In this document: one piece after another, positions 1 through 50,892 of the stretch
How positions within the stretch are numbered: position 1 is the stretch's first letter
Layout: every line of letters starts with the position of its first letter
DNA from: Blasia pusilla
Taxonomy: Eukaryota
Reading direction: 5' to 3'
Assembly: GCA_050084515.1 (NCBI GenBank)
Contig: CM114271.1
Span: 12,462,001-12,526,000, forward strand
DNA: 64,000 nucleotides
Translations under genes and position numbers: made by a program
Notes under the pieces: generated by a model
Told to the model about the DNA's origin: nothing
The model's input: only the letters and a program-made list of their open reading frames with translations
Databases searched by the model: none

Positions 1-949
1 GAAGAATCTGTGCATCATCAACGCAGAATTCCTTATTCGAAATGAGCTTCTCATAGAAATCTTGGCAACTTCTCCCAATAGAGATCTCCCTCTTTGGAAA
101 AAAGAACTTGTAGATGTCGCCTACATTCACTTGATTGCGTTTTAATTTGTCATAGTAGGATTTTACGTCCATCAAGTCTTCATTTTGTATTTTTTGAGTA
201 GATGTTGGCCGCAATTGCACCCTCAATTATAGGAGTTCTTGTGTGACTCGCATCACATTATCCTTGTCAAGCCCTTGGAGCGGTCTCAAGTTGGTCCTCT
301 TGAGCCTCCTCTTCTCAACCCTTTTTTTTATGTCTCAGCCAGTACTCGGAGTACGCGATACCATCTCGAGCCATGAGTTTACCTTCCTCGTAGGCAACCA
401 TGATAGCATGCCACATATTCCATGTCGCGGGAGAGCAATTGTAGAGGAAGGTTTTTATCTCCCTGTGGCTGGAACCAAAATGGGTGTTCAACCTCTTCAT
501 CATGGTCAACAGAAACCATGGAACTTAAGTATGATTAGAATACCAATGAGAACATGTCAGAATGATTAAAGATAGAGATGGCATGTGTGGTCAATGTTCT
601 ATCAGAATTCAAGTTCTAATTCGAAATTCAAATTTTGATTCGAATGGTACTGCATTAGCGATCCTCAATGCAAGGAAACCCACCACTTCTCCAATCTTCT
701 TCTTCTTGGTCTTCTTGATCGTTGCCAAAAGTGGCAATATGCATTCTTATCGAAATCTCCACTTTGCTGGCATATGCGTCCACTTTATTGTGAAGTGAGG
801 AGAGGCTGCAATACCGAAGATGGTTTTGAGGAAAATCTTCTCCCCAAACTACAGTACACAAAAGACTTTGGAAAAAAATCGTCCCCGGTTGTCTCATAAA
901 GTTTAGAGAAGGCGACTCTTGTATGCTCACCAGCAATTGCCCACTAGTA

Positions 950-3350: not shown

Positions 3351-3889
3351 TTGCAGGCCTTAGCGCCGCAATTGCACTTTGACAACCTCCTTTGAATCAG
3401 CCAAAGTTCCTTGTCCTAATCTATAGTAATTATTCCCAATGACATCGCTAGCCTCTACAGGGACTACATAAGAATTAGAACTTTAGATTGAGTTCCAGAA
3501 ATGCAAACTCATTCCAACCCAATTAGCAATTGGAACTCTAGTTCCGAAAGAACAAGCTGGCTTTGGTCGGTCGAGAGTACCTAAGAATCGGAACTATAGA
3601 TCTAGTTAAACAAACGATAACTGAATCCAATTCCCTAAACCATTTTTGTAACTCTACATTTAGGGTGTGAATTGGAAGTGTAGTTGCAAACCCTAAAACC
3701 TAAACACTGACATGCACAACACTTCTAGAAATGATAGAATGACCGAAATACCTTCACGAAGGGCACTCAGGAATCCAGCTCTGCATGCCATCTCCCGCCC
3801 CACAATAAAAGCCATAGATTCCATTGCACCGGAAGTATGGATCTAGGCTCAGTTTGATAGCTTTGAATCCAAAAATGAATGGATACCTA

Positions 3890-7430: not shown

Positions 7431-8929
7431 CAAGCGATCTTCCTTTGGGCTCGAAAGTCATAGCATGTGAAACCCCTAAGAGGCGTTTTCTATCTTGCCG
7501 CAATTGACATCAAAATGAACTCCTGTTAAACTCCATCGTAGACCAGATCAACAACAACACAAGTGTTGCATTCGGAAGGAGAAGAAAAAAGAACCTCACG
7601 GTTGTATTTCCGCGTTGACCTACAAAAGATCAACAACCGGGTGCTCACTTGTAGAGCAAGCGCTTTGCACCTCCGCTGCAGAGAGATCGATAGCAAAAAA
7701 ATGACCTAGGGAAACGTGGCTACTTATACTTGTCATTCATGACAGACTCGATGTTTGACTAGCAGTCCAGATTAGATCCATGTCATCACACCTACGTTAC
7801 TTAACCTAATACTCGCATCCATTTCAAAATTCAAATTTGGACGTCACAGATTCAAGATCTATATTAGGAGAATATATTACGCATTAGATCAAAACCACAT
7901 ATGTTGAATTCATTCGAGCTACTCCTCAATCAATTATGAAAACCAATGGCTGAGATTGATGAAAGGGCATGGATCGATCACCTCAATAAGAATGGTTTTC
8001 TAATGGAATTAGCGAGGATTATATAGGATTCCAACCCAACCTCGTGAGCCCAGTATCCCAACTCCTTTGTCCCTCCCCAACCATTCTCTTCAATCCATAA
8101 GGGTGCTATACCACATGATCACAATCATAACCATAGTCTAGAGACGTCAGGCCTCCACATATCGTAAGCTTATGAATTGAACCTCTAGACGGGCTCTACA
8201 CATAAGTCCTCTATTTTTTCCTCTTCTCGGCCATCTTTCCTTTCATAATCCATTCCACTTAGGGTCTCTATCCACACACATTTCCCTTCTCACGAGGGCC
8301 TCTGCTTGTCCAACAAATTAATTTTTAACTTCAAATCTTGCTTCATCATCATCACTCGATAAGCAGATCACCTTGATACAGAGTCGAATCACCTCAAAAT
8401 AATCCTGCAAGTATGACAGAAACTCCGTAATTTGTGATTTCCGGTACTATTTTTGGAATAGATTTACACAGGGGACCATAGTTGCTGGTGCAGTAAAAAT
8501 TATATCCAACCGCGTCAGATAGGTCTAACCCAGCACGAGGTTTCTAGGCAAAGCTCTAGAGCCTGAATCGGATCTGAAGATCTGATTCCACCTGAATTGT
8601 CCAATCTACTTTTACAAAATCGCCGGAAGTGCCCTTCCCATATCCAGAAGAGATACCTTAGGTTCTATAACCTAGGATCTTACGATCCGATTGAAACTCA
8701 TTCAGAACTTGAGTTCTCATTGGGCTTTTGTACGTGCATGACGCCCATTGAAAAGATAGCTAGTTGGAAGCATAGTTCCGAATCAGGAATTTGTGCATGA
8801 AGTCAATGCCAGAATCGGCTCTAAAGATCCAACCGAGAGCTTCACTCGTGAAAAGTGTGGCCCTCAAAGGTATTTTTCCGATTGATACTATAGATCCGAA
8901 AATGTGGAGGTGACGTCCACCTTAGAAGG

Positions 8930-9995
8930 TCAGGTGAGAGTTTGTCAATCGGATGGCGAGTTGTCCATCTCCAACTTTTGCGGAAAGGCGCCCAATGTTC
9001 ATTCGAATGGGATCTTAACATCCGTTAGAAGATTACCAAAGTTCCAATCGGACTTGCCCTTCCTCATCCCGATTCAATCTTAAGGTGCAATTCACCCACA
9101 GTCCACTGTCCCTTCACAAGGATCTTAAGATCCAAAAAAAGGACATTCGGCCCAATGTTCTTTTGAATGGGATCTTATAATCCATTGGAAGGTCATTCGG
9201 AACTACACTTCCCAATCACCTCTAGGTGAGAGAATGTTGGCCTTCTGGCTCGGAAACTCTCTCTTGACTTTATTAGGAACATTCGGAACTATAGTTCCAT
9301 TCGGAGAACTATGCTAGAGGCTGATGCTTTTCTCTACTTAAGAGTGGACCTTAAGATCCACCCTTTCCAACAGAATCTTAAGATCCAATTCGACCTTTGT
9401 CCTGTGACGCTTATATTAGATCTTAAGATCCAATTCAAGGTCATTCGAACATCCGTGGACAGTCCACATTTCTTCTTAACACATAACCCACGATTCACAG
9501 AATCGCGATAGATGCGCAAAGTAGTTTTTTTCAACTCTCTGATGACTTCATAATGGGGATGGCTCCTCGCAGCAATTGAAACCAGAGTTCTAATCGGACT
9601 TACCCTTCCTCATCCCAATTGGATCTTAAGGTCCAATTCACCCACAATCCAATGACCCTTCGATTGGATCTTAAGATCTGAATTAAGGACATTCAGCCAT
9701 CTGCGTGCTTGTCAGCGGAACCTTCCACTATCACTAGAAGTTGTTCGGTCCTGTCTCGCGTAGAGGCGCCTGATGTTCTTTCAAATGGGATCTCAACATC
9801 TGTTGCAAGGTCATCCGTAACTACAATTCCCAATCACCTCCAGGTGAGAGAATGTAGGCGCAAAGCAGGTTATTTTGAACTTTTTGGTGACTTTATTAGG
9901 TGGATGGCACATCTCCACATTTGGAACCAGAGTTCCAATCGGACATGCCTACAAGTTGTCACTCTTCCCGAATGGATCTTAAGGTCCAATTGGCC
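8930..9995. repeat. Cluster of imperfect repeats built around the palindrome GGATCTTAAGATCC
   Basis: Palindrome or near-copies at ~9010, 9120, 9170, 9346, 9374, 9418, 9621, 9666, 9975. Longer duplicated segments also present (GTTCCAATCGGACTTGCCCTTCCTCATCCC near 9040 and 9585; CCCAATCACCTC.AGGTGAGAGAATG near 9210 and 9830). Confidence 0.85.
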
Positions 9996-21999: not shown

Positions 22000-23250
22000 G
22001 AGATGAATGAGAATTTTTTTGAGTCCCAGTATTTCTTGCATTTAGATCATCTTTGAAATCGCCTCTTCTATCGCTAATACGTTCATACATAGGTAATAGA
22101 TGTAGTACGGGGAGATTTTACAATGATCCATTGTACTTCCTTTTGGAGGGAGAAATTAAACCAATTGGGAAAACAAGAATAGGAGATACCACGCATTGAC
22201 ATTAAGTTTTTGTGGTATCATGAGCTAACCTTTCTCATGCGAAAGCAATGCTCTTTTGGTGATGGGGGGAGAGGAATATGAATATGTGTGTAGAGTCTAG
22301 GACATGGGAGATCGGGATGGAAAGAGCAAAGGAGATCATTTTGGGTTAACCATGTCTAAGCAATTCTAGTAGGAGGTGGTATAGAGTTAGGGATTGAAGG
22401 CTCATGCATGGATCAACAATATCACTGATGTCTTTTGATTCTAGTAGGAGCAAAGTTTTTACAACAAAATATGCAATAAAACTTTGGTATAAATGTAGAA
22501 GAATAAGAGCTACAAGGGGAAGAGATGAGAGATGAATGAGATGATGATGGAAAATGATGTGGGGATAAGTAAGTTGGAGAAGCAAGAGGAGGAAGAGGAG
22601 TGATTCCCATTCATAAGATGAGAGTTGGAAGCAAGGGTTCACATAAGATATACTAGTAAGTTGCCTCTACAATGCACGGGAAATAAAAATTTGTTTGAAG
22701 AGCTTTAGAAAGTGTATAGCCTATGAAGGGACTAATGATGTTCCATATAAATTCAGATATTTTTCTTGCTCCTTGTAACATACTTAACATTTTCTTGCTG
22801 CCCAATTGCCATGTGTCAGACAAAGAGGTGTTTGCAGATCAAGAAGGCACTCTTGAATAATAATAATATAGATGAGGATGACAAAGTTATAAGATTCATT
22901 AGTAATGGATTGAGATTATGATGAATTGGAAGAGATAGAGAGAGGGTAAGAGAATGATGGAAGAAATGTAGAGAGTGTGATGGATATATGAGTATTGGGA
23001 GGAAATTGGTGAGATGTACGATGAGGAGGGTGACCAAGAGAAGAAAATATGACCAAAGGAGGTATGTAAAAGTAAATAAGCGAGATGATGGATTGTCCAA
23101 CTCCATGTTAATGGAACCAAAAGTATACATGTCATGCAAGACAAGTGCAGATATAATGATTTGTAATAAAGTGAATGTTTAGGGATAATGGCCATAATAA
23201 AAGGAGTGGAATTCATCCATACTAGATTTAGATTGAGGAAATTAAGGCTA
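22000..23250 (-). mobile_element. Highly decayed non-LTR retrotransposon fragment (possibly CRE-like)
   Basis: 22240-22330 visibly aligns with 49680-49775 (AAAGCAATGCT...GGTGATGGGG...TAGGACA...GGATGGAAAGAGC). Purine-rich plus strand; no intact domain. Confidence 0.35.
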
Positions 23251-26200
23251 GAAAAACTCGAATTTATGATTTAAAATCACTAAGTTGTTTAGAAGAAGAG
23301 GAGACCTATATGATATAAAAAATAGTGACTTAGTAATATGAATTTAGAATGTTCTTAAGAAGATAGCAAATGTAGGCAACGTAGCACGACAAGTCTTGAA
23401 AAAGTGAGAATTTCAAAGATATATGAGAGAAATTGATTGAACATGACCTTGTGTACAAAAATAGGCACCTACAAAGAAGGAAAAAAAACTACAAAACCTA
23501 CTTATATGAAAACAATCGGCTTGCCAAGCCAATATTAACAAGACCAAGCACATCGATGCTTCAAGAGAAAATAACGGAGGAAATTGAAAACACCAATAAA
23601 ATGGATATAAGGAGAAAGTGAAAACCACCTACCAATAATAAATATGAACAGATAAGATCGCAATGTTGGGCCAAATATTAAGCAAAAGATTGAGATACTC
23701 AAGAGGAATCCTTTGATCCAATTGTAACCAACAATCACACTATAAAAAAAATATAAAGTGTGAAACCGTATTGAGGAATCTATGAGCATATTCATAGAAG
23801 GAAGGGATGCAAAGATCCCAAGAACTTTAACAAATCACAACATAAGTGGGAAAAAGAAAGACCCAAATTTAAGTTTGAGAAGATGATGAGTATGCAATTG
23901 AAAAGATTGGAATCTTCCATGCATATGTTCTCTCCGTCTAAAACTTCCAACTAGTGAACAATTGATATAGGTTATGCGAATTTTGTTTCATAGTATTAGG
24001 CCTAGATTAGGGCAAGTAAATTCTCCCCTAAGTGGAGAATTTGAATTTTCTTCCTTAATTTGAAATATTAGCTTATTTCCCCATATTCTATTCATTGAAA
24101 TCAAGTTTATTACATTAATTTCCAATCATGACACCTTAATGGTTATCTGATATGGATGAAAATAAAATAAATTAATGGACATATGCACCCTATAATGATG
24201 AATAGTTCAAATTATGTACCATTATAATAAATATGTAATTAGAAATTTAAATTATTTAAAATTATTTAAGAAAATCAACCTTAACCGATCTATCACGTCT
24301 TTTAGAATAGATCGGTGAGATCTAATAAAACCCCTTCATGAGTAGTGGAGGACAGGCTCAGTAGGTCGAGGATGACCTACTGAGGCCCCGGGAAACCTGA
24401 GAGAGCACATTTCCCCTTCGTTTCGGCTCATTTGGAGCCATATTGAGGAACTTACTATTTTAGGTAAGTACCATTTTGAGTATATGATCGAGTTTCTATT
24501 TTTGATAAGTAGCCCTTGACCTCCTACATCAGGTCAAGATCCAAAGAGGTGACTTGGAAGCATAGGTTACCATGAAGAAAGTTTGGGAGAGGGGAGGGGT
24601 ATACCTCAAGGAGAGAGAGCTTGAGAGCTCATTCTTTCTTTGTTGAACCTCTTGGCATGAGGCGGCGGAGTTATTGTCTTGCTTGCCTTGTGTGTGTTAC
24701 CCAAACTTCTCATTAGGAGAGTGGGTTTGGTTTGACATTGAGAGAGACATGTGAGAGTGCACACATGTGAGAACTATGGTGTTGTGAGAGAGATTGAATC
24801 TTATTTTACAAAGAGAGAATGAGTGAGTGAGAGAGCTTCGTGGGGAAGCTCGCTGGTCACTCGCTGGTTTTGCAGGTTGGGGATCGTATCCCCCGTTCAG
24901 TAGTTCATGGGAGTGCTTACCGGAGCAAGAGCCGCTTACTTGTGATGTTTCCTTTGCCGATTTTTTGTGTGGAAGAGTGGCGCACGAAAGCGCTGCCCAA
25001 TTTTTGATAGGGATTGAGTATGGGAGCAGGTTGCCCTATGCCGGTGCTCTTAGAAGCACCATGTAGCTTGCTGATTTGTATTTTCACAGGGTTTATATTT
25101 TGGTTGAGAGAAATCAGCGCAGCAGCGCTGCCAAATTTTATGTAGGAGAAAGAGACATTGGGCTTTACGACAATCTCCATCAATTTTTACTGGAATCTTT
25201 GATTCAAAATATTTTTTGATGTCATCGTAGATCATGAAGTTGTGCACGCTGTGCAATAGATGGTGTGCAATTTGGAGTTGCGAGCAAAGAGTTATGCTCA
25301 ATCTTGCAAAATTGCCATTGCTAGGCAATTTTTAAGGTTAAATTGTTCAAACCCTAAACCAGCCGCCACGTCGGCGGCGGCTGTCGCCGTCATAGTCACC
25401 GTAAACAATTTCTCATCAATGATCAATTGTCACCCTCAATGGTCAACCATCAATTGTCATTGTCTACGTTTGGCCATCACCATCAACCGTCCACCGTCGG
25501 CCGCCGCCGAGCGCTACTCAGAGCCGCGTTCATCCGTTGTCCACCCTTTGGTTGCCATTGCAGCCATTATGGAGTGGAGGGTCTTCCACGACGATGGTTG
25601 ATTCTCTGACTTGCTTCGCCACCACATACTTTGTTTTGGCCGCCACTGTCATCGCAATTTCGTCATCAACCACTGATGGCACATGACCTCAGGTTATGGT
25701 GTTTGAGTTTTCATTTCATGCTGCTATGTGGTGATTGGTAGCCGCTCGACGACGATTGAGTATCGTGCTGTGATGCCCTTAGCCGCAACGCGCCACCGAT
25801 TGTTGCATCGTGCCGCTCGTGGCCGCACCGCACCGTCTCGATCGCGGAGCCGCTCATTCACTAAGGAGCAGAGCGTGTGAATTGCTGATTGAGGAGGGTA
25901 TGCCGCCAAATGCCGCACTCCATTCTCGAGTGTCGTGTCGTTTGTAGCCGTTCCGTGCCGCCAATGCCGCATCGGACCGTTGGACCTGCACCGCACACCA
26001 AGGAGGTTTGAGCGGCGTGAGTACAAGAGGAGTAGGACTTGTTGATTGGAGGAGTGTGGGATGTCCAGAGTTGAGGATGGTTTGTTGATGAGACGATAGA
26101 TCAGTGATTTTCCGTACCACGCTGCTTGTTGCCGCATAGCACACATCTCAGTGAGAGAGTGTAGATTGAGTGCCCCATGTTTAGTTTGAGTGATTGAGGG

Positions 26201-26373
26201 ATTACTCACGAGATTGAGAGTGATCATGCGAGAGGGGCACGAGGGCCATCACGGTGTCCTTTCAGGATTTTGAGAGGCGAGGTAGTGGACTTGAGAGTAG
26301 CTCTTGAGGGTTTACCCGAAGTGGTGCAAGGTTTCAAGGGTCTCCACGTGAGAGACCACCTCAATCTCCTTCT

Positions 26374-27560
26374 ATGTCATCTTCAGACCAGGAGGAGCGT
26401 ATAGAGGAGTGTGTGAGTGATCCACCGTACACATTGAGTGGTCCTACCAGTTGGGCGTACGAGATGGACGACCGGGATAGAAGACCGCGTAAGTTTTCGG
26501 GTGCTGTAAGCACTATAGAGCTACACAACTTCATTGCGGAGTTTAGGAGTTGGTGTGACTCACAACGGGCTAGGAACTCTAGAGAGTTCAAACCGTTTAC
26601 AACATGGAAAGGTATGTTCCAGCATTTAGAGGGGGAGCCCATGGACGATTACCATGAGTTCTCCCACAGATATGCCCAGGAGATTGAGGCATGGCAACTC
26701 TACTCTGACCCACACTATTTGTCATGGATGGAGACATTCCCAAATGAGGAGGAGGACTCAGGAGAGGCTAATTCCTCTTCCACTAGTGATGTTTTAGGAG
26801 GGGTCACTCGCACTGGAGCAGTTGCACCGTCTAGTCGGGTTCATCCCAGGTTCAACCCTGTGGTTGAGTTCTTTGTTGAGTTGAGGGCGAGCTACCAAGG
26901 GGTACGGACCGAGAAGTTGCGGAGCATCCATGACGTCCAAAGGATTCCGGGTGAGAGTTTGCATGAGGCTTACACTTGCTTGCGCCGGTTGATCAACGTC
27001 ACTCAGGAGGTGACAGAGGCTCAGGCTATCTAGTCATGGTACGCGATGTTGGAGCGGACCCTACGGACACGAGTGCGGGAGGGGATGCTCCTTATGAACA
27101 CCTCCCCTATGTTGAGAGATATTTTAAGGACCACCGAGAACATTGAGCGCAACATGGCAGAGGAGAGCATAGCCACCATGGGTTCTCTGCGAGAGCAGTC
27201 ATGATTGTCTACACCACCTGTGCAACGTGGACTCCGAGTCCACGTTTGCTGTACAGGTGGCAGCACGAGCTGTTAGAGGATATCGGGAGGCCATGCCACA
27301 GAGACTTGCGCCTTCATATGCGGCTCAGCAGCAACTGCCTACGATTACTTGTTGGTCATATGGTGGAGTCCGTCATCAGTGTGATTGCACTCGTCAGGGC
27401 CATGGACGTGTGCCTGAGTATGGAGGAGGAGATGGTGCTGCACCAGGAGGTTATTAGTGTGACTATTGTCAAAGGTATCGTCACACACACGCCAGGTGTT
27501 TCAGTTTACATCCTGAGTTATGTCCGGACCAAGGGCCAGAAAGGGCACCAAAGCGAGTAG
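26374..27560 (+). pseudogene. gag-like region with two zinc knuckles
   Basis: ORF 26374-27033 (RKFSG..QRIPGESLHEAYTCL) continues past a stop. Knuckles CWSYGGVRHQCDC (~27350) and CDYCQRYRHTHARC (~27458-27500). Confidence 0.8.
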
Positions 27561-28043
27561 TCGGTCCGGGTGGGCCTAGAGATCGTGCACGCAGGTGGTC
27601 TCGTTGGAAGACGAGGAGCTGGAGTTGCCTGACAAGGTGGTGGAGCTGTCCATGGAGGAGGTAGAGTCCCACCACCTAGACGCGTTGAGGGAGACGCTAG
27701 GCGTGAGGCTAGGATGGCTGCTCAGATACATCAGCTACATGAGCAGATTGTCGCTATGGCATTGAGTTTACCCGATGTCGGATCCATAGCATCGACATCA
27801 TATGGAGCAGCCAGAGATGTGGAGGATCCTGGTTGGATGTGCGGGGTTGCCCAGATGGAGGCCGCCGTAGTTGTGATGCGTGGAGCAGCCGCAGAGTTGG
27901 ATCCAGAGCGAGGGGAAGCCAAGAAAAAAACTAGGCCTCCTTTGTCTTTCACGTTGTCTGAGGTGATGAGGACCCCATTGATGGGTCCTTATCAAAGTTC
28001 CTAGAGAGTTGGTGATGTTGTTGGTGTGTAGGCATGGAGGGCT

Positions 28044-28790
28044 ATGGGAGAAGCAAGTGCAACGACTCCTATTGCTGATGCTCAGGAGAGGCATGTGTCG
28101 AGCATGTTGTTGGTGGCGGCCTCCGTTGTGTACCGCGCTCCTTTATTTTTTGCTTCCGATGTTATGACGTTGGAAGGTACGCCCGCCGAGGTTTTTCAGC
28201 TGGCCGCTACGCTATGTGAGCGTGGAGTTGGAGTTCTTGCATCATGTTCAGAGGTGATTGCAGAGGAGGTGATGGACCTGCCCTTGGAGCGGATGCTCGG
28301 GCCGTCCACGTCAGATTCATGGCAGGTTGCGGCTGCTAGGATGGCGAAGATGCCCGCTAGACCCGTGATAGAGCGTGCCATGACTTCTCCTGGTGTTGTG
28401 TTTTTGGATAACCGAGGAGAAGTCTTCCAGTTGGTGAGTCTCGGAGGTAGAGCTTTTAGTCTGCAGCCCGTCTTGTTGGATTCAAGAGCGCAACCCTTGA
28501 TGTTGGGGAAAGCGTCATTCAGAGGATTGGGCTTCACGAGAGCCGATGTGGAGCGTTGTCCATTCCAGATACAAACATCCTTGGGTGGAGTGAGTACCAC
28601 ACAGTATATCACCAGTCATGAGGTCGTAGTGAGGATTCGCCCGAGACATCCTACAGATGAGTCCATGGTGCAAGCCAAGGCGATAGTGACTGATGTAGAG
28701 TCCTACAACGTCTTGGTTGGTGGAGCAGTGTTATACCCGATGGGGTTTTCCCTAGATTACTGGGAGGAGTCAGCATCCTACAAATGGTAG
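28044..28790 (+). pseudogene. Retropepsin (aspartic protease) region
   Basis: VLLDSRAQ (cf. LDSGA) and the downstream YNVLVGG motif. Confidence 0.75.
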
Positions 28791-29185
28791 TCAGATGATG
28801 GGTGCCTTAGCTCATTACCCGCTTGATGCAGAGGTGCAGTGATCAAGCGACGGCCGAGAGAGATGGCCACCTCAGCAGCATTTAGCAGTGTCATCACTTG
28901 GCCTAGTGATCTGATTGAGGGACTTGTCCATGCATGAGATTTTCTTGTTCCTGACATTTCTATGGAGAGGAGTGACATAGTAGCCGCATCAGTCCGTGGA
29001 GGAGAGGTGCCGCTTTGGGCTCAACTGAGGAGCTCCGACCCTTAGCCACTGAGCATGTGCAGACCGCGTGGAGTGAGACGCTTGCACTAGAGTGTGACGG
29101 GTGAGAGGAACCCAAGATAGGCAAGAGTTCTGCTATAACCCCTTTGCACACCACCCCAATTATATGGTGCATCCCAGAACAGGGT

Positions 29186-30120
29186 ATTCGGGTGTTGGAT
29201 CTCTTTGGGGTGATCAACACTAGGTTAGCTGTTGTTTTGCACGCTCGAGTGTGCATGCAGCAGTACCTATATGTGAAGATTGATGATGTTGCGAGGCACG
29301 CTTCACTTCACCATATGGCGTTGTTATGCCTCTATTTTCATGACTTGTTGTCTCCGTCCACCATTCACGGTTACTAGAGTTCCTTACCGAGGGACATTTC
29401 ATTGTTGGGGGCGCAGGACTTGGAGCGAGTAGGGACCATAGACTTGGTTATTTCTGGTTGGCCGTATCAGGGCCAATCGAGTGTTGGACGAGGTAGCGGG
29501 TTAGCTAACACTTGGTCCAGGTTGTTTTGGGAGATGATGCGGATCTTGCGACATTTACATGAGCATCAGCCTCGTTCTCCAGCATACATTTGGAGAATGT
29601 GCCAATTTTAGGCAATTCGAGGTCCCGCGTGGTGACGAGTGCACATCAGGTGCGTGCATGGATCGGCTGGTAGTGTTGTTAGATGTGGCGAGTATAGGTT
29701 CTAGAGCACACCGCCCGCGTCTTTGGTGGACCAACTTGGTACCACATGAGGTGTTGTAGAGGGCTTTTGCGAGAGTGGAGCGTCCCTCCGATTTGTTGGT
29801 GGTTCTATATTGGATCCGGGCCGTCAATCATAGGCAGTGAGGCACGATGATCGATCGCCGTTGACTGTGGTCAATAGGATTGGCATGCCATGAGCAGCCT
29901 TTCACACATTTATGAGTTTTCCTGCTTCCTATGCATTCAAGGAGGCCGGACTTGGCTTGGTTTGGGATGACCAAGTACAAAAGTTGGTGGAGCCCAGCAC
30001 CGATGAGCGAGAGCGAGCGATGGGATTCCCCACATGAGTGACAGCAGTACTATCACTATCGGAGGCATTACGACGTCATGTCTTGACTCAGGCCTTGGAC
30101 CTGAAATGCTTGATATGGAT
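29186..30120 (+). pseudogene. C5-cytosine DNA methyltransferase domain, DNMT3-like, inside pol
   Basis: Motif I VLDLFGVI (~29192), motif IV IDLVISGWPYQG (PC to PY, TAT at 29465), SRLFWE, motif VI ENV (29593, after a frameshift), motif VIII AHRPRLWWTN (29706), motif IX ERERAMGFP (30005), motif X RRHVLTQALD (30071). Confidence 0.9.
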
Positions 30121-30439
30121 TTTCAGCTAAGAAGTAGCTGAGCAACGTCGTTTGAGGATGCGATAGATCACAAAAGTTGCGTTGGTGAGCCCCATGCCTA
30201 TCGAGACGGTTGAGGCAGTGGCTGGGGGCGAGACCCGAGGAGATCGACATACCAAGGGTTATCGGGAGAGACACCCTTGGACTTCTTGGGATGTTTTGCA
30301 GGTACGCCAGGAGATGATAGCCACAACATTGAGCGTGGTTCCGAGTATTGCACGTGGAAATGAGAGTTCTATTGTCCAAGACGGGGTTGCACCATAGCAA
30401 CCACCGACATCCGCACCGGAGAGTCCTACCGTAGTCACG

Positions 30440-31920
30440 ATGGAGACTTGGGAGCTAGATATGGGCCCTCAGTTGACAAGAGGAGAGCGGCGTCGGATAC
30501 ACCAATTCCTTAGGAGTTATAGGAGTTGTTTTGCATTTAGTATGCATGATTTGGATACGCTGAAGGGTCGAGGGATCCGCATTGAGTTATCGAGTGACAC
30601 GCCGATCTTCCGAGGATCCTACAGGTACAATGACATGGAGAGGGCTCTGATTCAGAGTAGGAGCCAGGACTTAGTTGGAGCAGGACTAGTGGAGATGTCG
30701 CATGGAGAGTATGCATCTACCACTGTCATGCCCTTCAAGAAGGATATGCATGGCAACTGGACGGATAGGCGAATGTGTGGAGATTACCGACCTATCAATC
30801 TACAGACGAAGTCTGATAAGTATGCCATGCCCATCCCTGAGGAGATCTTTGATACGATTGGGCATGCAAAGGTCTTCAGTTCATTGGATTTGCGAGCTAG
30901 ATACCATCGGCTGCCTATCAGATTGGAGGACAGGAAAAAGATGACATTTTGGGGCATCGATCCTCACGGGAAGGATTGTTTGTACCAGTGGCGGTTCTTA
31001 CCATTCGGGTTAAAGAACGCCCCGGTTGAGTTTCAGAGAGTCATGGATAGGATCTTGGCAGGTCTGGATTTTGCTAGGTGTTATATTGATGACATCGTAG
31101 TCTTTAGTGCCATGGTTGAGGAGCATGAGCGACATCTAGAGGAGGTATTTTGACGATTTCAGTTACATGGGCTGAAGCTACATCCACACAAGTGCAAGTT
31201 CTTCTACGACCAGATTGAGTACTTGGGTCATACAATATACCTTGGGGACCTTGGTGTGCAGCAGACAAATGTAGAGGCTATTTCACATATTCCACGTCCT
31301 ACAGATGTGAGTCGAGTTCGTGCATTCATGGGATTGGCAAACTTCTATCGACGGTACGTCAAGGGGTTCAGTTCGATTGCAAAGCCGCTAACCTTGATGA
31401 CCAAGGTGGATCATGAGTGGCATTGGGGGGATGAGCAAGAGAGAGCATTTCAGATGCTCAAGGACAGATTGACGTCCACGCCCATATTGAGGAGATCAAT
31501 CAGGGGGCATCCTTTCCAATTGCATACCGATTGAAGCATGTTGGGGCTTACATCCGTGCTCACCCAACATGATGATGATGGTAGAGAGTTCATGGTGGCT
31601 TATGCTAGTCGCTCGAACAACACTGCAGAGGCAAAGTATAGCTTGTATGAGGGTGAGTGCTTGGCTGCAGTGTGGCTATCGCATATTTCAGATGTTATCT
31701 ATTCGGCAATCCCTTTACCATCATTACTGATCATCAGCCACTTAAGTGGTTGATGGAGTCCGACAAGCTTACAAGGAAGCTTGCAAGGTGGGCTCTTCTG
31801 TTGCAGGAGTATGACTTCCAGATGGTGCATAGACGTGGGATGCTCAACCAAGATGCATATGGTTTGAGCCGTAACCCATGCCCAAGTCAGCGAGATGTGA
31901 CTAGAGCTCGTTGGCATGGT
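30440..31920 (+). pseudogene. Ty3/Gypsy reverse transcriptase and RNase H
   Basis: RMCGDYRPIN, FSSLDL, LPFGLKNAP, CYIDDIVVFS, VRAFMGLANFYRRYV, FQLHTD, VAYASR, ITDHQPLKWL, LARWALLLQEYDF. Confidence 0.97.
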
Positions 31921-32239
31921 GAGAGTGATGAGGAGTTGGTGCGAGGATGGCATGCATCAACCTATTTGGGCTTATTGGCTATGGAGAGCCAGATTGCTGA
32001 GACTTCAATGGCGAGGTTTGATGGAGAGTCCTTAGATCCAGAGGCCGGTGAGGAGACGATAAGTGGTCAAGACATTCACGACGATGGAGTGGTCTTGGAG
32101 TACCTGCGTATTGGCAGCATCGCGAGCACAGTGGGTACTAGAGAGCGGGGTCGGATCCTACAGCGAGCCAGACGGTTCCGGTGGGAGGGCACACATGTGT
32201 TGCGAGTGTGGGAGGATAGTAGAGTGCGTGTAGTGCCTC

Positions 32240-33340
32240 ATCCTTTGCAGAGAGCACGTTTGGTGCGTCATGCCCACGAGGAGTTGGATCATTTTGGAGT
32301 GAAGCGGACGTACAACTTGCTCCAGATTCAATATTGGTGGCGAGGCATGCAAACTGACGTTCAGCAGTTTGTTGCTAGATGCATGGTGTGTGATCGAGTC
32401 TGAGCATCGTTCAATGCTGCAACTCCACAATTGCATCCACTTCCGATCATGAGTTTAGGTTATAGATGGATTCTGGATTTTGCAGGACCTTTGCCTTTGA
32501 CAGAGCACCATAGTCGTTATGTGTTGGTGATGGTTGAGCACTTCTCGAAGTGAATAGAGTTGGTTACATTGCCTGACAAAGCGAGTGAGGTAGTAGCATA
32601 TGCCTTCCTAGATTGAGTGTTGAGTCATTATGGCGCACCAGCTGAGGTTTTGACAGACCCTACCCTAGTCTGTCAACACCTCAGAGTTCCTTGAGGAGTT
32701 TCAGGCCTTGTATGATCAAGCACTGCTCGACCACCGCACTACTTCGCTAGATCATCTTGAGGCAGATGGACTAGCGGAGCGGGTTGTGCAGACGGTGAAG
32801 AGAGGACTACGCAAGTATGGCTTGTAGAGAGGTCACCTAGGAGATTTGGACCTTTACTTGCTGTGGTTGGCGATGGGATACAAAAGGCAGGCATCCTTAG
32901 CGCCTTTCTCACCGTACTTGTTGCTTTATGGTCGAGAGCCAGATTTACATACGGCCATTCGTCAAGATACTGGTGAGGTGTTGAACCTTGATGACCCTGA
33001 TGTATGGATACAATCATGTTCTCAAAGGGCTCAGTTGTTTCGGAGAGTAATGCCCATGGCGTTTGAGAACTTGACGATTGCGCAACATCGGGATACGTTG
33101 AGGTATGCGACTATTCGAGGAGGTGCTTATCGACCTACTATCTTGAGGTTTCATCAGGGAGATTATGTCTACTTGCACTAGATGGAACCCACAACGTTGG
33201 ATGTGATTGTAGGGCGCACCATCTTGAGATTGCGTGAGGTTTTCCCATCCGGTGTTCTCTTATTGGAGGGACGCGATGGTATGGTTTGGAAGGACCATGT
33301 GCATAACTGTGCGCCATCTCATCTTCCGAACATTAAAGGA
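32240..33340 (+). pseudogene. DDE integrase (HHCC zinc domain, catalytic core, C-terminal domain)
   Basis: HEELDHFG..YWWRGM..CMVC; LDFAGP; GAPAEVLTD; ADGLAERVVQTVK; SPYLLLYGREP. Several stops and a local inversion at 32642-32684. Confidence 0.93.
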
Positions 33341-33377
33341 ACAATTGATCCGAGCTTAGCAATAATTCGTGCAAGCT

Positions 33378-33520
33378 TGCGGTGTATGTTGTGTGGTTCC
33401 GCCCGTGATGCAGCCACTATGCTAGTCTGTGATGGGTGTTCGAGAGGATGGCATATGGCATGTTTGACGCCACTTCTCACTAGGTTTCCTTAAGGACAAT
33501 GGATGTGTCCCAGATGTACA
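33378..33520 (+). pseudogene. PHD finger at pol C-terminus
   Basis: CMLC..MLVCDGCSRGWHMACLTP..(stop)GQWMCPRC gives C4HC3 with the typical W before the last Cys pair. Confidence 0.92.
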
Positions 33521-36375
33521 TAGAGTAGGTAGTTCTACATTCCGACTTGTGTCTATGATATGGATGACAAGAAGGCGACTAACGATGGGGCCACATGAGC
33601 ACCTGGCCTTCTTGCTCTTAGCGTCCCAGAGATGTATGTCATGGTAGGTAGAGATAGATGGCTATGAGGAGTTAGAGGAACCTAACCACCAACTAGAGGG
33701 GCGATTGGAGATATTTTGGTACTTCTTGTCTTGTTGTTTGGATGCCATGAGTTAGCATGGGATCTTGTGTGTTTATGTGTGTGTTCGGTGACAATGATGT
33801 ATGTTTTGTAGCGATGTGTATGTGCTCGAAAATTGTCACATCTTTTAGGATATATCAGTGAGATCTAGTAGAGCGCCTTCGTGAATAGTCGAGGACAGGC
33901 TCACTAGGTTGAGGATGACTTTCTGAGGCTTCGAGAAACCTGAGAGAGCACGTTTCCTCTTCGTTTCGGCTCATTTGGAGTCATATTGAGGAACTTACTA
34001 TTTTAGGTAAGTACCATTTTGAGTATATGATCGATTTTCTATTTTTGGTAAGTGGTCCTTGACCTCCTACATCAGGTCAAGAGTCAAGGAGGTGACTTGG
34101 GAGCATAAGTTACCATGGAGAGAGCTTGGGAGAGAGGACAGTATACTTCAAGGAGAGAGAGTTTGAGAGCTCATTCTCTCTTTGTTGAACCTTTTGGCAT
34201 GAGACGGCAGAGTTATGGTCTTGCTTGCCTTGTGTGTGTAATCCAAACCTCTCATTAGGAGAGTTGGTTTGGTTTGACATTGAGAGAGACATGTGAGAAC
34301 TATGGTGTTGTGAGAGATATTAGATCTTATTCTATTGGAAATATTTTGGTATTTCTTGTCTCGTTGTTTGGATGCTATGAATTAGCATAAGATCTTACGT
34401 GTTTATGTGTGTGTTCGATGACAACGATATATGTTGTGTAACGATGTGTATACGTACGATATATCATATTTCAAATATTTTTTTAAAAAAAAATAATTTA
34501 ATTCAATAATATAAATTATTACTTATATTCTATTTTATTCATTATAATGAATGAATTCTTAATATAATATTAAATGAAACCATATTTTTTAATCAATTAG
34601 GATGCTAGTATGTTGATTTATACTCATATTAAAAAGTACCTTCTTTATTCCCAACCCTCCATGTGCATAGAATTAGAGAAACCTTTTTAAAACCCTTATA
34701 TTTTTGACATTTTATTGTTAATGAATGTCATTTAAAAATAAGCAGATTAAGGAGAAAATCTCACCCGTGGGGAAGCATACTAGTTTAGATTGTGGTTGCA
34801 TTTTAGGGTTGCTTTCAACCATTTGCATTTTCATGCGAACTGCGAATTCCGCGATAAGTGCGTGGGTTTCGGTGTTCGACTGACTGTTCGCTAGGTCCGT
34901 CCGAAAATATCACATCATTCGCCGATACGTATCGACGAAGGATGACTCGTCAGCACTCGTCGAAGGTCGGATGAAGGATGAATCACGCGAAAGGTCAGGC
35001 ATGGGACTCCAGATCGTGTTCGTCGGCAGTCGAATACGCATAGATGAACGAAAATGTTTCTCCTGACGAATACTGTTTGCTGGGGTAAAATCAATGTTTC
35101 GTCCGAGATCCAAGAGGTGGGTAGAATAAAACTTCGAGCGTGTCTCCGAGGATAATCCAATGCGGCTAAGAATCCCATAGTCGGTTGTCAATTACAACCT
35201 CAAACCGTGGCAAAAGTCGGTGCCAAGTGTCAGCCAATGCTCATGAGAGTTAAGATCTCCGAAGGTCTTTGCGCTTGAATTCATTACCGTGAACGTTTAA
35301 GGGCCTAAAGGAAAAGTTTTTCGGTTGGTGAGGGCCAATGCATGATGAATGTGATGCCGCGATGCCGCGATGCCGCGAAAGCGATTGGTTTGGTAGGTTC
35401 AAGCGATCGGCGCTTACACAATGCAGCCCGTCGTTTGATGAATTGGATTGCTTGGAATCACTGGAAGCCACACTCAAACTGTGGAAACGCGGTGATGCGA
35501 TAAATGTACAGGGGGAAGAAGCCGCATCAATGCTTGCGCATGGGCCACCTCATTCAATGGGCGCAGCAATTAATTTGCTTTTCGGCGGAGAGATCGGCTC
35601 CTACGTTGTCCTATGGCTCAACATCGCGGGATACAACAGGATTCAACGGAATTTTAACCATTGAACCCTTCATAACTCTGCCACGACTTGAGTCCGTAGG
35701 TACATGGCAAAGGTCTACTTCATGCCCTACGTGTTGTGTTGCGTATTAATTATCAGTAAGCAAGCGCGATCTCCGGATTCCTCACAAAACTGCCGATCCA
35801 AAAGATGTCGCTGATAGATGTTACGGAAACCTCAAAGTACCGTAGGCCTTGCAGGTTTGAAACCCTTCACAAGTAGTACCGGCCTTCTCTCAAATGTATC
35901 TGGCCAATGCAGCAGTTTTGATCTGTTATAAGGTTCGTAGTTCAAAGATGATAGTGTGCTTGGAGAAAATCGAGGTCCAGTAACATCAGCATCAGTAAAC
36001 TAATTAATTCAGAGCTGAGAGTTGATCTTTGGGCAGCGAGTTTGGGAAATTAATAAGAAATGGACATCGTGTGGATGAGTCTCCATGCGTGAAATTTACG
36101 GACAGGACCTGTCTACCTGACAATGTGTGCCTCTACCACTGATTTTATTTACGGTTCTGTATGGACTGTATACTCAATCTTCCTAGCTTCGACGGAGCTA
36201 GCAGATCTTCCTAGATCAACGCGGATCAGGGCAGAAGGAGCTTCAATTCGTCAGTACTGTGCTCGCATAAAGATGTGACTCTCTCTCTCTTTACACCCAT
36301 CCCAGTCTCAAGCACCGTCCAACCAGGGCGTGGGGTCTATGGTCGCAAGGCTACGACAGGCACTACTTAATGAGT

Positions 36376-50418: not shown

Positions 50419-50892
50419 TGTCGTGCGAATCCACATCGTCATACAACATACATCGCTGACATACCATACTCACATACATACATAACATAGACGAGAGCAT
50501 CCACAAACATAAGTGTACCACAACTGAAGTCCGTGAAAGATCTACTGTCATAAAACACGTATAGAATCACATACAATCGAGCCAAACCCACTCCACGATG
50601 GGAGAATCTAGGTCGAAGCTTGCGGGAAACACCATAGCCAAGAGCTCTACTCACTACCAAGGCTAACTCCCAATGCAACAAGCTCAACTCAAAGAACTGA
50701 CTGTTCTTTGGATGCACTCCACACTATATCCTCCAACCTAAGAGCGGGCCCTACTGGGAAAGTCACCCCCAACTGAGTAACCCCCAACTCTATGTATGAA
50801 ACCGCATTTCTACCTAGCCACTACGATCCTACATAAGGTATGGCCTCTACTAGCACACTATACTCTACGACATAATCCGTATGGTCATGACA
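50419..50892 (-). mobile_element. Solo terminal repeat (A+B type) related to the DNMT-Gypsy element
   Basis: Minus strand ends GTCAGCGATGTATGTTGTATGACGATGTGGATTCGCACGACA, which aligns without gaps to the end of B2 (34420-34461). It starts TGTCAT (alternative start TGTCGT at 50872). TSD ambiguous. Confidence 0.65.

Follow-up and report, generated by a model that had tools for sequence, protein, structure and literature searches.

The locus examined here lies in a 64,000-nucleotide stretch of a Blasia pusilla contig (CM114271.1; the window) and raises the question of how a Ty3/gypsy retrotransposon that encodes a DDE integrase came to carry split direct repeats (A...B-A-B) rather than two ordinary long terminal repeats (LTRs). 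The best explanation overall, to which we assign a probability of roughly 0.55, is that reverse transcription (RT) would be self-primed, that the LTR would be B-nn-A, and that the integrated copies would be permuted. This replication route is drawn wholly from sequence anatomy.

The split repeats and AT spacer described in an earlier, sequence-only reading of the window were confirmed by blastn self-comparison, and all lie on the + strand. A1 (24291..24808), the left repeat, and A2 (33834..34334) are 86.8% identical across 516 aligned columns (E = 0); A1 starts with TATCAC and A2 with TGTCAC. B1 (33704..33831) and B2 (34334..34461), the latter forming the right end of the element, are 88.1% identical across 118 nt (E 2.6e-39), with the final ~10 nt of B diverged between them. 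The 2-nt AT spacer (33832..33833) separates the end of B1 from the start of A2 in a joint of the CA-nn-TG type, and A2 directly adjoins B2, a single ambiguous A at 34334 being common to both. B occurs neither 5' nor 3' of A1, as had been noted, and there are no additional A or B copies of this family within the 64-kb window. The A and B pairs have diverged about equally (87% and 88%). The element is a decayed, inactivated old copy of a bryophyte Ty3/gypsy lineage, its A copies ~13% apart. By inference, A1 comprises a promoter (U) and a transcribed R-U5-like part.

The coding region, also on the + strand, is heavily disrupted by stops and frameshifts, and its parts follow the order gag, protease, C5 DNA methyltransferase (DNMT), reverse transcriptase, RNase H, DDE integrase, and PHD finger. 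The putative gag (26308..27033, a 241-aa open frame) and putative protease (28032..28790, a 252-aa frame) were assigned by position only and have no Pfam match; in the intact relative L001, Asp_protease_2 occupies the position equivalent to the latter. A CX2CX4HX4C zinc-knuckle-like motif, of a type found in gag nucleocapsids, was seen by eye in the translation at 27458..27499, without a Pfam match. The methyltransferase domain is split over several frames (29105..30124) and was identified by PF00145 (E 9e-6, on 29378-29611), by a tblastn match to residues 162-322 of the protein P0017, and by motifs seen by eye. It is followed by the reverse transcriptase (30398..31240; PF00078, E 1.5e-18, and tblastn to P0017), RNase H across three frames (31424..31812; PF17917 and PF17919), the integrase H2C2 zinc-binding domain (32248..32397; PF17921, E 4e-16), the integrase DDE core in pieces (32404..32827), and, at the polyprotein C-terminus, a PHD finger (33383..33481; PF00628, E 1.5e-7). 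Taken alone, the DDE-core pieces have no Pfam match; they align by tblastn with P0017 residues 853-1229 and 1232-1513, which include the P0017 rve domain. The full DNMT-RT-RNaseH-IN-PHD set is present in P0017 and L001, and the closest named proteins belong to two liverworts, Calypogeia fissa and Marchantia polymorpha, and to Sphagnum. In keeping with the integrase assignment of the sequence-only reading, the tyrosine recombinase domain PF00589 was found in 0 of the 50 ORFs scanned from the window and relatives (14 window ORFs plus a set of 36, 27 from the window and nine from L001, L002, L030, and L035). The family encodes a DDE integrase and no tyrosine recombinase.

Relatives were surveyed at 80 metagenome loci and 13 loci of a second set, with duplicates identified and merged. 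Complete A...B-nn-A-B copies were found at L031 (=L034), L036, and L023 (=L024; B2 of only 56 nt), and L021 has A...B-nn-A interrupted by the contig end. B-nn-A-B follows pol at L009 (=L022), L011, L015, and L082, and the two B copies of L082 are 100% identical across 106 nt. Independent copies do share the layout: B-nn-A-B or A...B-nn-A-B occurs at eight independent loci of other assemblies. Of the 11 loci where the left end is visible, one of which is the window, none has B upstream of A1, and these 11 left ends included no A-B-nn-A...B, versus five A...B-nn-A-B. The survey contained no copies with a PBS and a pair of complete, ordinary LTRs, the form that would have made the window a one-off. 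Single-B copies (A...B) were present at seven independent loci, which come from short-read metagenome contigs where assembly collapse is possible. The A2|B2 joint is identical in eight of nine copies, and L011 has a 19-nt filler at this position. We regard the identity of the element and the family-wide A...B-A-B layout as very probable, and the normal integrated form of the lineage appears to be A - PBS - coding - PPT - B - nn - A - B.

Integrated copies have TGTCA...GACA-like inverted termini, and a perfect 4-bp target-site duplication (TSD) flanks four of the seven testable copies (L031, L036, L005, and L006); the match is 3/4 in L029 and the window and 2/4 in L041. The candidate duplications in the window are GATC (24287..24290) and TATC (34462..34465), and the TSDs of relatives fall at the same boundaries, the A start and the B2 end. 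The TG...CA-like ends and 4-bp duplication suspected earlier are thus borne out in relatives, and such termini and TSDs are as expected from a DDE integrase. The earlier impression that B1-AT-A2 resembles a right end joined to a left end also held, since the B1|A2 joint in relatives is a GACA-nn-TGTC palindrome, with GC, AT, TC, AC, or GT as the spacer between B end and A start. For the window family, the consensus B end taken from loose read ends is poorly defined, with an agreement of 0.4, and may not end in CA.

The earlier reading had seen no polypurine tract (PPT) abutting A2. This is correct, as A2 has no purine run next to it in the window, but an AGAGGGG tract (33695..33701, + strand) 2 nt upstream of B1, within the conserved block ACCTAACCACCAACTAGAGGGG, had been overlooked. 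An AGGGGGG equivalent is found 5' of B1 in 14 of 14 aligned loci, and also in L001, L002, L035, L081, and L082. The plus-strand PPT is likely to be the tract at B1.

The earlier reading had also noted no tRNA primer site. There is indeed no TGG-type primer binding site (PBS) 3' of A1, and ARAGORN found no tRNA genes in the 64-kb window, but a self-primer PBS (24808..24823, + strand) begins at the last base of A1. It is complementary at 15/16 positions to a primer arm in A1 (24628..24643), the predicted 5' end of the transcript, and at 16/16 positions to the intact arm in A2 (34170-34185). A TATA-like box, TATACC (24600..24605), lies ~28 nt upstream of the primer arm, and the same arrangement recurs in L036-type copies, L001, and L081/L082. 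The score of the window PBS/primer 13-mer was reached in 0 of 500 shuffles, a control that is weak in several decayed copies. When 24628-24830 is folded as RNA (z -3.94), its initial 16 nt are base-paired to the PBS in the MFE structure and in the centroid structure alike; three RNAs were folded in all, and in each of them the 5' end pairs with the PBS (z -3.94, -4.76, and -2.97). Complementarity covaries in four lineages: it is 16/16 in L001 and 13/13 in L081, which has two compensating changes relative to L001, and L036-type copies have a pair of different sequence, in which CpG decay blurs the covariation and A has a second partly complementary site. L039 carries A-PBS and then A (1 to ~174) in reverse complement, which fits, within one base, the product expected of a 3' PBS tail snapping back on the primer arm. 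Tf1 has no tRNA PBS, and the 5' end of its transcript is complementary to a PBS beside the LTR. Because the sequence from the last A1 base is complementary, over up to 16 nt, to a site ~30 nt past the TATA box, minus-strand synthesis is probably self-primed in a Tf1-like manner.

Under the preferred reading, a transcript would start ~30 nt past the TATA box in A, and its first ~13-16 nt would pair with the sequence from the last A1 base and prime the minus strand. The plus strand would start at the polypurine tract adjoining B1, and since the PBS lies at the A1 end and the PPT at B1, the LTR defined by RT would be B-nn-A in an otherwise ordinary cDNA. Integrase would skip the ends of this LTR and use the internal CA-nn-TG palindrome, so the integrated element would be a circular permutation of the cDNA. 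A2|B2 would then be a two-LTR junction, in which the U5 end meets the U3 start, and the integrase ends would be mirrored in B1|A2. This permutation logic seems somewhat better than an even bet. A...B-A-B would come from a two-LTR form opened at one palindrome, either a circle or a molecule with ends joined by RT or the host; that integrase opens such a joined or circular form is a tentative suggestion. Single-B copies would derive from a one-LTR form or a later B x B deletion, and solo A-B from A x A recombination. A...B-A-B would be the replicating form, as only this layout gives a complete genomic RNA (R-U5-PBS...PPT-U3-R). The noncanonical RT route proposed in the sequence-only reading is therefore retained in part: initiation looks Tf1-like and RT otherwise conventional, and the unconventional part appears to be that the RT- and integrase-defined ends are out of register.

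Reads from the window's own organism (DNA run X16, with a read similarity of at least 85%) gave a depth of ~600-3100 on the element, with the two read orientations summed, vs 0.8 in the 3' flank. The A|B joint was carried by 263 of these DNA reads, and at loose read ends the A start was preceded by a B end and the B start by an A end. The sense strand of the element was covered in three RNA runs, with five, two, and one reads across the A2|B2 joint.

These data also bear on a DIRS/PAT-like route with an integrase, which we consider unlikely, though worth weighing. Here A...B-nn-A-B linear DNA would be integrated directly, without a circle or end joining; genomic RNA would begin within A1 and end within B2 or beyond it, A2|B2 would be inherited through RNA, and template switching to the internal B1-nn-A2 would restore the left part of A and the right part of B that are missing. 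Opening of a symmetric two-LTR circle would be expected to give A-B-nn-A...B and A...B-nn-A-B equally often, contrary to the counts, and a more rapid A x A deletion in aged copies, which might mask the former, is an ad hoc remedy; the occurrence of only A...B-A-B and its deletion derivatives fits the DIRS/PAT-like route directly. The uniform A2|B2 joint and the RNA reads crossing it fit inheritance through RNA as well as re-creation in each cycle. L016, which lacks PPT-B1 and has pol running straight into the transcribed part of A, with B after it, points the same way, and passages of PMC7192593 give a similar account for tyrosine-recombinase elements with such a layout. However, this route requires the minus strand to start exactly at the B2 end, where no primer site was found, and it gives no role to the PBS at A1 or the PPT at B1, both within 0-3 nt of repeat boundaries. 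The L039 fossil has A plus PBS as the cDNA right end, and the filler at the L011 A2|B2 joint is expected of a newly made joint.

A further reading, which we judge very improbable, is a standard LTR element. Its LTR would be either A by itself or an A-B that habitually loses the 5' B copy, and B would be a duplicated 3' untranslated or terminator segment that takes no part in replication. A1 and A2 do bracket the coding region like LTRs, and by eye the UG-rich B could carry polyadenylation signals. However, the TSDs bracket the span from the A start to the end of B2 rather than that of A2, the PPT adjoins B1, not A2, and the B end and A start form inverted termini with a conserved palindrome where they meet. 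A solo A-B in the window is itself flanked by repeated ATAA(T).

That the window holds a local accident (an ordinary two-LTR Gypsy with a B duplication or 5' LTR deletion, or a misassembly) might be suggested by its old, broken state and by its being the sole family copy there, but this is refuted on present data by the eight independent loci elsewhere (one with identical B copies), the many raw DNA reads from the window's own organism that carry A|B and B|A joints, and the layout already published for Klebsormidium (PMC5890265); the about equal divergence of A and B and, for a single segmental duplication, the differing flanks of relatives also speak against it. Equally remote is a tyrosine-recombinase element with its recombinase in trans or too diverged to detect, which has the classic PAT/Ngaro layout in its favor (PMC5890265; passages of PMC7192593) and against it the absence of PF00589 from every tested frame, intact relatives included, an integrase with zinc and core domains kept in the family, and the DDE-integrase marks of 4-bp TSDs and TG...CA-like termini.

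The sequence-only reading had held A...B-A-B to be foreign to integrase-encoding LTR elements, which is contradicted by KnitGypsy-Dnmt3 of Klebsormidium nitens, reported by de Mendoza et al. 2018 as having a DIRS-element repeat structure with Gypsy domains (PMC5890265, section 9 and Fig. 4c legend). This is the one previous report of split repeats on an integrase-encoding Gypsy, and a preprint of 2026 counts Gypsy-DNMT3 among the streptophyte lineages. KnitGypsy-Dnmt3 shares with the window family a Gypsy-type pol, a C5 DNA methyltransferase in the polyprotein, and the order A-coding-B-A-B, a likeness by description, with no Klebsormidium-named proteins among the matches to window-family proteins. 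The window family differs in its bryophyte-like hosts (named relatives in liverworts and Sphagnum) and in the PHD finger after the integrase. PAT-like, Ngaro, and other DIRS-order elements, of which TOC1 is a non-autonomous example (PMC9940879), also have A1 ... B1-A2-B2 with an internal B1|A2 that mirrors the joined ends (passages of PMC7192593), but they carry a tyrosine recombinase gene and lack a DDE integrase. The window family is the reverse, and 4-bp TSDs along with a PPT and PBS set it further apart. The predicted self-priming without a tRNA PBS is shared with Tf1/sushi and plant Tcn1-clade chromoviruses, and passages of Neumann et al. 2019 predict it in 12% of plant elements, the moss Tcn1 clade included (PMC6317226); in those elements a chromodomain is combined with a normal pair of LTRs, whereas the window family has split repeats, a PHD finger in place of the chromodomain, and a DNMT. 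Canonical Ty3/gypsy elements (Metaviridae) have the same PR-RT-RNaseH-IN order, PPT, TG...CA-like termini, and 4-bp TSD, but in the window family the left LTR of the integrated copy is incomplete, the ends used by integrase would fall within the LTR defined by RT, and DNMT and PHD domains are added. Retroviral integrases can cleave palindromic LTR-LTR junctions of two-LTR circles, according to portions of PMC1905944, PMC1180852, and PMC4372172, which offers a biochemical precedent for the proposed CA-nn-TG opening; what is a side reaction in retroviruses would be the main route here. PBS, PPT, and TSD analyses of KnitGypsy-Dnmt3 are absent from the main text of PMC5890265, and what is new here is the anatomy of a self-primer site that covaries in four lineages together with a conserved polypurine tract at B1.

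The decayed Gypsy copy at 24291-34461 (+ strand) carries split direct repeats in the order A1...B1-AT-A2-B2. Repeat finding and within-window blastn bore out this arrangement and its coordinates, both of which had been proposed by the sequence-only reading. A1 (24291-24808, first bases TATCAC) precedes the coding interior, and the right end consists of B1 (33704-33831), an AT spacer (33832-33833), A2 (33834-34334, first bases TGTCAC), and B2 (34334-34461), with a single base shared ambiguously between A2 and B2, all on the + strand. Identity is 86.8% between A1 and A2 (516 aligned columns, blastn) and 88.1% between B1 and B2 (118 nt, E = 2.6e-39, blastn). The two pairs are thus about equally diverged, consistent with both having arisen at insertion. 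No B adjoins A1 in this copy. Two complete direct LTRs are absent from the ends of the integrated copy, which has A only on the left and B-nn-A-B on the right (nn, the 2-nt spacer). No further A or B copies of the element's own family were found in the 64-kb window by blastn, and no second pol by tblastn. Within 22000-36000, G+C content is 45-52% in the element vs 34-41% in the flanks, and GC skew is positive on the coding strand of the element.

Between the repeats, the + strand encodes a heavily broken polyprotein. Pfam and tblastn searches identified a C5 DNA methyltransferase (DNMT, PF00145) upstream of the reverse transcriptase (RT), along with RNase H, the H2C2 zinc domain of integrase, a DDE core in fragments, and a PHD finger at the C-terminus. 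Two putative frames lie upstream, one gag-like with a CX2CX4HX4C motif and one protease-like, both assigned by position and by eye only. The pol order of protease, RT, RNase H, and DDE integrase is that of Ty3/gypsy elements, both in the window and in the intact relatives L001 (a locus) and P0017 (a protein), and the DNMT is inserted before RT. Matches to PF00145 were found in the window, in the relative proteins P0017, P0008, and P0016, and in the relative loci L001, L002, and L030. P0017 is a full-length relative with the order DNMT-RT-RNaseH-IN-PHD, and L001, also full length, is divided into ORF1 (gag-PR-DNMT) and ORF2 (RT-RH-IN-PHD). The assignment as a DDE-integrase element was upheld by the search for a tyrosine recombinase (Phage_integrase, PF00589), which found none in 14 window ORFs or in the 36 ORFs of a further scan (27 window ORFs from both strands and 9 ORFs of intact relatives). 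There are no tRNA genes in the window and no Rfam families in the element. An exhaustive profile-free search returned 301 cluster representatives at E ≤ 1e-30. The closest named proteins are from the liverworts Calypogeia fissa and Marchantia polymorpha, and also from Sphagnum; no Klebsormidium-named proteins occur among the matches, most of which are nameless. Among the best RT relatives, many proteins are very long (2000-3500 aa, 30-40% identity, two matched stretches), which suggests a wider set of large Gypsy-like polyproteins. In L030 (3-5993), a GC-rich relative, the DNMT match lies between RNase H and integrase and not ahead of RT, and L035 (4436-9784) has a comparable gap between these domains with no DNMT match in it. 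Insertion at a different point would imply that domains were shuffled or captured a second time.

Starting from 13 aligned family proteins, 80 metagenome loci and another 13 from contaminated prokaryote assemblies were retrieved. Layouts were called by self-comparison and by mapping of A, B, post-A, and pre-B sequence, and duplicate loci were merged by their flanks (L009 = L022, L023 = L024, L031 = L034, L040 = L041). The A...B-A-B layout is common to independent copies, being complete in L031, L036, and L023 (B2 shortened to 56 nt in the last). L009, L011, L015, and L082 have B-nn-A-B after pol, with the left end beyond the contig, and L021 has A...B-nn-A, stopped by the contig end. Copies with two ordinary complete LTRs, a case for which the sequence-only reading had allowed, were not found in the relatives. 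Collapsed assemblies with open frames (L001, L002, L081, and L035) have a visible polypurine tract (PPT) followed by B-nn-A; the first 127 nt of L081 recur at its end, as do the first 21 nt of L035 (by eye). A single B, in which A...B is followed by unrelated sequence, was found in complete form in L005, L006, L029, and L041 and as a 3' end only in L003, L013, and L017. B is truncated in L033, and L016 and L048 have internal deletions. B1 and B2 of L082 are 100% identical over 106 nt, and this young copy therefore indicates that the layout arises at insertion and not via slow decay. Among the 11 loci whose left end is visible (L004, L005, L006, L007, L021, L023, L029, L031, L036, L041, and the window), B precedes A1 in 0 of 11, and none has A-B-nn-A at the left end. 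L081 and L082 are filed in an uncultured cyanobacterial MAG, yet both are eukaryotic retrotransposon sequence of this element's family, which points to a contaminated bin. Other MAG contigs (L083-L093) carry more distant Gypsy-like pol genes.

Copies of the L036 type start with TGTCATGACC and end with CGCACGACA, forming an imperfect inverted repeat. The termini of the relatives (TGTCATGA...CGCACGACA) are of the TG...CA type, and the end bases of the window copy are mutated (TA..., ...TA). Target site duplications (TSDs) were scored with element start and end boundaries fixed. A perfect 4-bp TSD was found in four of seven copies (CATA in L031, AATC in L036, TGTG in L005, and TACA in L006), vs ~0.03 perfect duplications expected by chance in seven. 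The match is 3/4 in the window (GATC/TATC) and in L029, and 2/4 in L041. Integration through TG...CA ends with a 4-bp TSD, as anticipated from the window copy, is therefore supported. Inside the element, the B end and the A start are these same termini facing each other across 2 nt. In most copies the meeting point reads GACA-GC-TGTC or GACA-AT-TGTC, and other copies have mutated variants; the joint of L001 is GACA-GT-TGTC, and the spacer is GC in L002, L035, L081, and L082. These facing inverted termini in the relatives agree with the view of B1-AT-A2 as a right end joined to a left end. A second sublineage is represented in the window by a solo A-B unit at 50419-50890 (minus strand). Its B shares 81% identity with the B of L036, its first bases are TGTCATGACC and its last bases CGCACGACA, and it has a TATA box and a hairpin; ATAA(T) is repeated on both sides, offset by one base, and no pol is close by.

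The element has both a primer binding site (PBS) next to the 5' repeat and a PPT next to the 3' repeat, with a PBS that is not of the tRNA type. The sequence-only reading was correct that no tRNA-type site follows A1, but a self-primer PBS begins at the last A1 base. The 16 nt at 24808-24823 match the reverse complement of A2 34170-34185 at every position, and A1 24628-24643 pairs with the same 16 nt with one mismatch. In a mismatch-tolerant scan, 0 of 500 post-A shuffles scored as well as the window pairing, for A1 and for A2. The complementary site in A (the primer arm) lies ~28 nt downstream of a TATA-like box in the window, and the transcript would start at the arm, a position predicted from sequence. 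This geometry recurs in relatives on other sequences. The L001 pairing is 16/16 (8835-8850 vs 9023-9038, with TATAATG at 8809), that of L081 is 13/13 with two compensating changes relative to L001, and the L036-type family has a primer/PBS pair of 10-11 nt; complementarity with covariation was found in four lineages. In the L036 type, CpG decay and a second, similar site in A blur this signal. Shuffles were as good in ~1-3% of cases for L031, L036, L006, and L029 and in at least 13% for L023, L005, L004, and L041, and the second site, not the primer arm, is the best match in L031, L006, L021, L004, and L041. No primer/PBS pair of at least 11 nt was found in L035. In predicted folds of the start-to-PBS RNA, the first 13-16 nt pair with the PBS in MFE and centroid structures alike (z = -3.94 for the window, -4.76 for L001, and -2.97 for L081). 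The PPT reads AGGGGGG, or AGAGGGG at 33695-33701 of the window; it sits 2-3 nt ahead of the first base of B in the family's best-conserved non-coding block and is present in 14 of 14 aligned loci and in L001, L002, L035, L081, and L082. None had been seen abutting A2 in the initial inspection; the tract exists and abuts B1 rather than A2.

One relative, L039, has B-nn-A, the PBS, and then the reverse complement of A from ~174 to 1 (3363-3878), so that its terminus is an inverted A start. This looks like an integrated snap-back cDNA, in which the 3' PBS tail would have folded onto the primer arm, matched within one base, and resembles a relic of self-priming. A near-copy of the PBS lies just upstream of the primer arm in all sublineages (window 24606-24643, L001 8827-8854). 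The near-copy and the primer arm form a hairpin, with 12 bp perfect in L001 and imperfect in the window, and the near-copy would occur only in the 3' A copy of the RNA. In L016 (3300-3600), the pol end is joined to A from just past the primer arm, followed by B, and in L048 (2060-2492), A is partly duplicated between two similar motifs; the breakpoints of both variants are at the primer-arm hairpin.

Reads were used to assess copy number and transcription. About 1 in 100 reads of a DNA run from the window's own organism (X16) were sampled, and reads at least 85% alike were retained. Depth over the element is ~600-3100 (both read orientations summed) vs 0.8 in the 3' flank, which indicates that the family numbers about a thousand copies or more in this bryophyte-like genome. 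Nearly all of these reads are 85-95% alike and therefore originate from paralogues. The A|B joint (24807 to 33704) occurs in 263 reads. Loose ends ahead of the A start resemble the B end (564 reads, agreement 0.4), loose ends ahead of the B start resemble the A end (891 reads, agreement 0.6), and those past the B end are AT-rich flanks (791 reads). In three stranded RNA runs with the same species label (X19-X21), the sense strand is covered across the whole element at 85-95% likeness, at a depth of ~10-210, which exceeds that of the antisense strand 10- to 30-fold, indicating that the family is transcribed. RNA reads at least 99% alike number only 2-10 per run, nearly all RNA reads coming from paralogues, and the window copy is thus probably untranscribed. 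RNA depth was taken in 360-nt bins with reads divided between A1 and A2, a resolution too coarse for transcript starts or ends. Reads across the A2|B2 joint number 5, 2, and 1 in the three runs. Two further joints occur in RNA with 0 DNA reads. The first, 33646 to 24598 (~34140 in A2), is present in 4, 8, and 10 reads and drops the promoter part of A together with the PPT, B1, and the spacer. Splicing could explain it, as could expression of a single deleted copy; the splice-site letters of the window copy do not fit GT-AG cleanly. The second, 30562 to 31634, skips 1071 nt in RT/RNase H (9, 23, and 3 reads), and its ends are not GT-AG.

The left boundary of B falls at the PPT and the right boundary of A at the PBS, so ordinary reverse transcription, with the minus strand self-primed at the PBS and the plus strand primed at the PPT, would give cDNA with a B-nn-A LTR at both ends. 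Integrated copies run from the A start to the B end, that is, within this predicted LTR. The boundaries defined by RT and by integrase are each readable from sequence, given a recognizable self-primer PBS and PPT, and they are out of register. We tentatively propose (probability about 0.3) that the lineage integrates as a rule from joined-end cDNA, circular or end-to-end, with its own DDE integrase opening the CA-nn-TG palindrome in the manner of a recombinase site. In terms of the out-of-register boundaries, the A...B-nn-A-B form would be a two-LTR form, its U5 end joined to its U3 start (A2|B2), that was opened at the palindrome within its left LTR. A...B would correspond to a one-LTR form or to a B x B deletion at a later time, and solo A-B to an A x A product or a small arc of a circle. 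Only A...B-nn-A-B could be transcribed into a complete R-U5-PBS...PPT-U3-R genome, and it would therefore be the replicating form. The A2|B2 joint is uniform in 8 of 9 copies; L011 carries a 19-nt filler there, as is seen in aberrant end joints. Palindrome cleavage is made plausible by this filler and by retroviral integrases, which can cut palindromic LTR-LTR junctions according to the sections consulted of PMC1905944, PMC1180852, and PMC4372172. Symmetric opening of a two-LTR circle predicts A-B-nn-A...B and A...B-nn-A-B at equal frequency, whereas 0 and 5, respectively, were found among visible left ends; the longer A repeats could delete A-B-nn-A...B copies faster in old insertions.

A DIRS-like route with a DDE integrase fits the uniform A2|B2 joint and the few RNA reads across it equally well. 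The RNA would run from A1 into B2, and the internal B1-nn-A2 would only repair the ends, a type of repair already proposed for DIRS-type elements (PMC7192593, in the part consulted). We consider this route doubtful, as initiation at the end of B2 would lack a primer and neither the PBS nor the PPT would have a role. Routes to A2|B2 by RT only were weighed from the PBS and PPT positions with other primer sites, the PBS-like second arm in A, and the B tail of the RNA, and none was found that works on paper unless ends are joined or an end-to-end switch occurs.

Should integration from joined-end cDNA be correct, the split repeats of integrase- and tyrosine-recombinase-bearing elements would share one cause, integration at internal pre-joined ends. 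Such repeats are read as a signature of tyrosine-recombinase retrotransposons, and to our knowledge their origin has never been demonstrated by experiment. The family would represent convergence on a circle-junction mechanism and a living case of a retroviral route, one that was once proposed for retroviruses and later abandoned. The anatomy of the element is clear and one replication step is testable, directly so because the family has many transcribed copies and young ones (L082, as well as L001 and L081, whose frames are open). Annotation by LTR finders built around two equal LTRs and a tRNA PBS will miss such elements or misplace their boundaries.

Among known systems, the DIRS order (DIRS1, PAT, Ngaro, VIPER) shares split direct repeats of the PAT/Ngaro type, A1...B1-A2-B2. 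Unlike DIRS-order elements, which are not known to make an integrase-type TSD, this family has 4-bp TSDs and, in the ORFs scanned, no tyrosine recombinase (PF00589). It resembles Ty3/gypsy in pol order, PBS and PPT, TG...CA termini, and a TSD of the 4-5 bp class, but differs in lacking two complete direct LTRs. In Tf1/sushi elements, the transcript 5' end self-primes reverse transcription at the PBS. Here, too, the predicted 5' end is complementary to a PBS adjoining the repeat, a likeness based on complementarity, covariation, and folds. Self-priming is predicted for 12% of plant LTR elements, including the moss Tcn1 clade (PMC6317226, in the portion consulted).

The closest counterpart is KnitGypsy-Dnmt3 of Klebsormidium nitens, described by de Mendoza et al. 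(2018, PMC5890265) as a Gypsy pol that includes a methylase of the DNMT3 type. The legend to their Fig. 4c equates its repeat structure with that of a DIRS element; the main text makes no mention of primer binding, polypurine, or target site and gives TSDs for LINE elements only. In full-text searches, the names KnitGypsy and Gypsy-DNMT3 turned up only in PMC5890265 and in a 2026 preprint, which lists Gypsy-DNMT3 for streptophytes and does not discuss the ends. No other integrase-bearing elements with split direct repeats were found among the titles listed in a literature search. The window element and its relatives share with Gypsy-DNMT3 elements a C5 DNA methyltransferase within the Gypsy polyprotein (PF00145) and, compared with the 2018 figure legend, a DIRS-like repeat layout with Gypsy domains. 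The A...B-A-B layout on a Gypsy-DNMT element was therefore already in print, and of the claim that it is a hallmark of tyrosine-recombinase elements and not of integrase elements, the PAT/Ngaro type of layout stands and the restriction does not. The first interpretation is largely right and not new in kind. By DNMT and layout, the element is of the Gypsy-DNMT3 kind, likened to KnitGypsy-Dnmt3 by published description, and with its DNMT and PHD reader it takes the account of Gypsy-DNMT3 beyond a charophyte alga to relatives in land plants. Relative to the papers searched, the occurrence of this kind of element in bryophyte-like genomes with a PHD finger appears to be new, as do the self-primer PBS, the PPT at B1, the inverted termini, the TSDs, and the out-of-register boundaries of RT and integrase.
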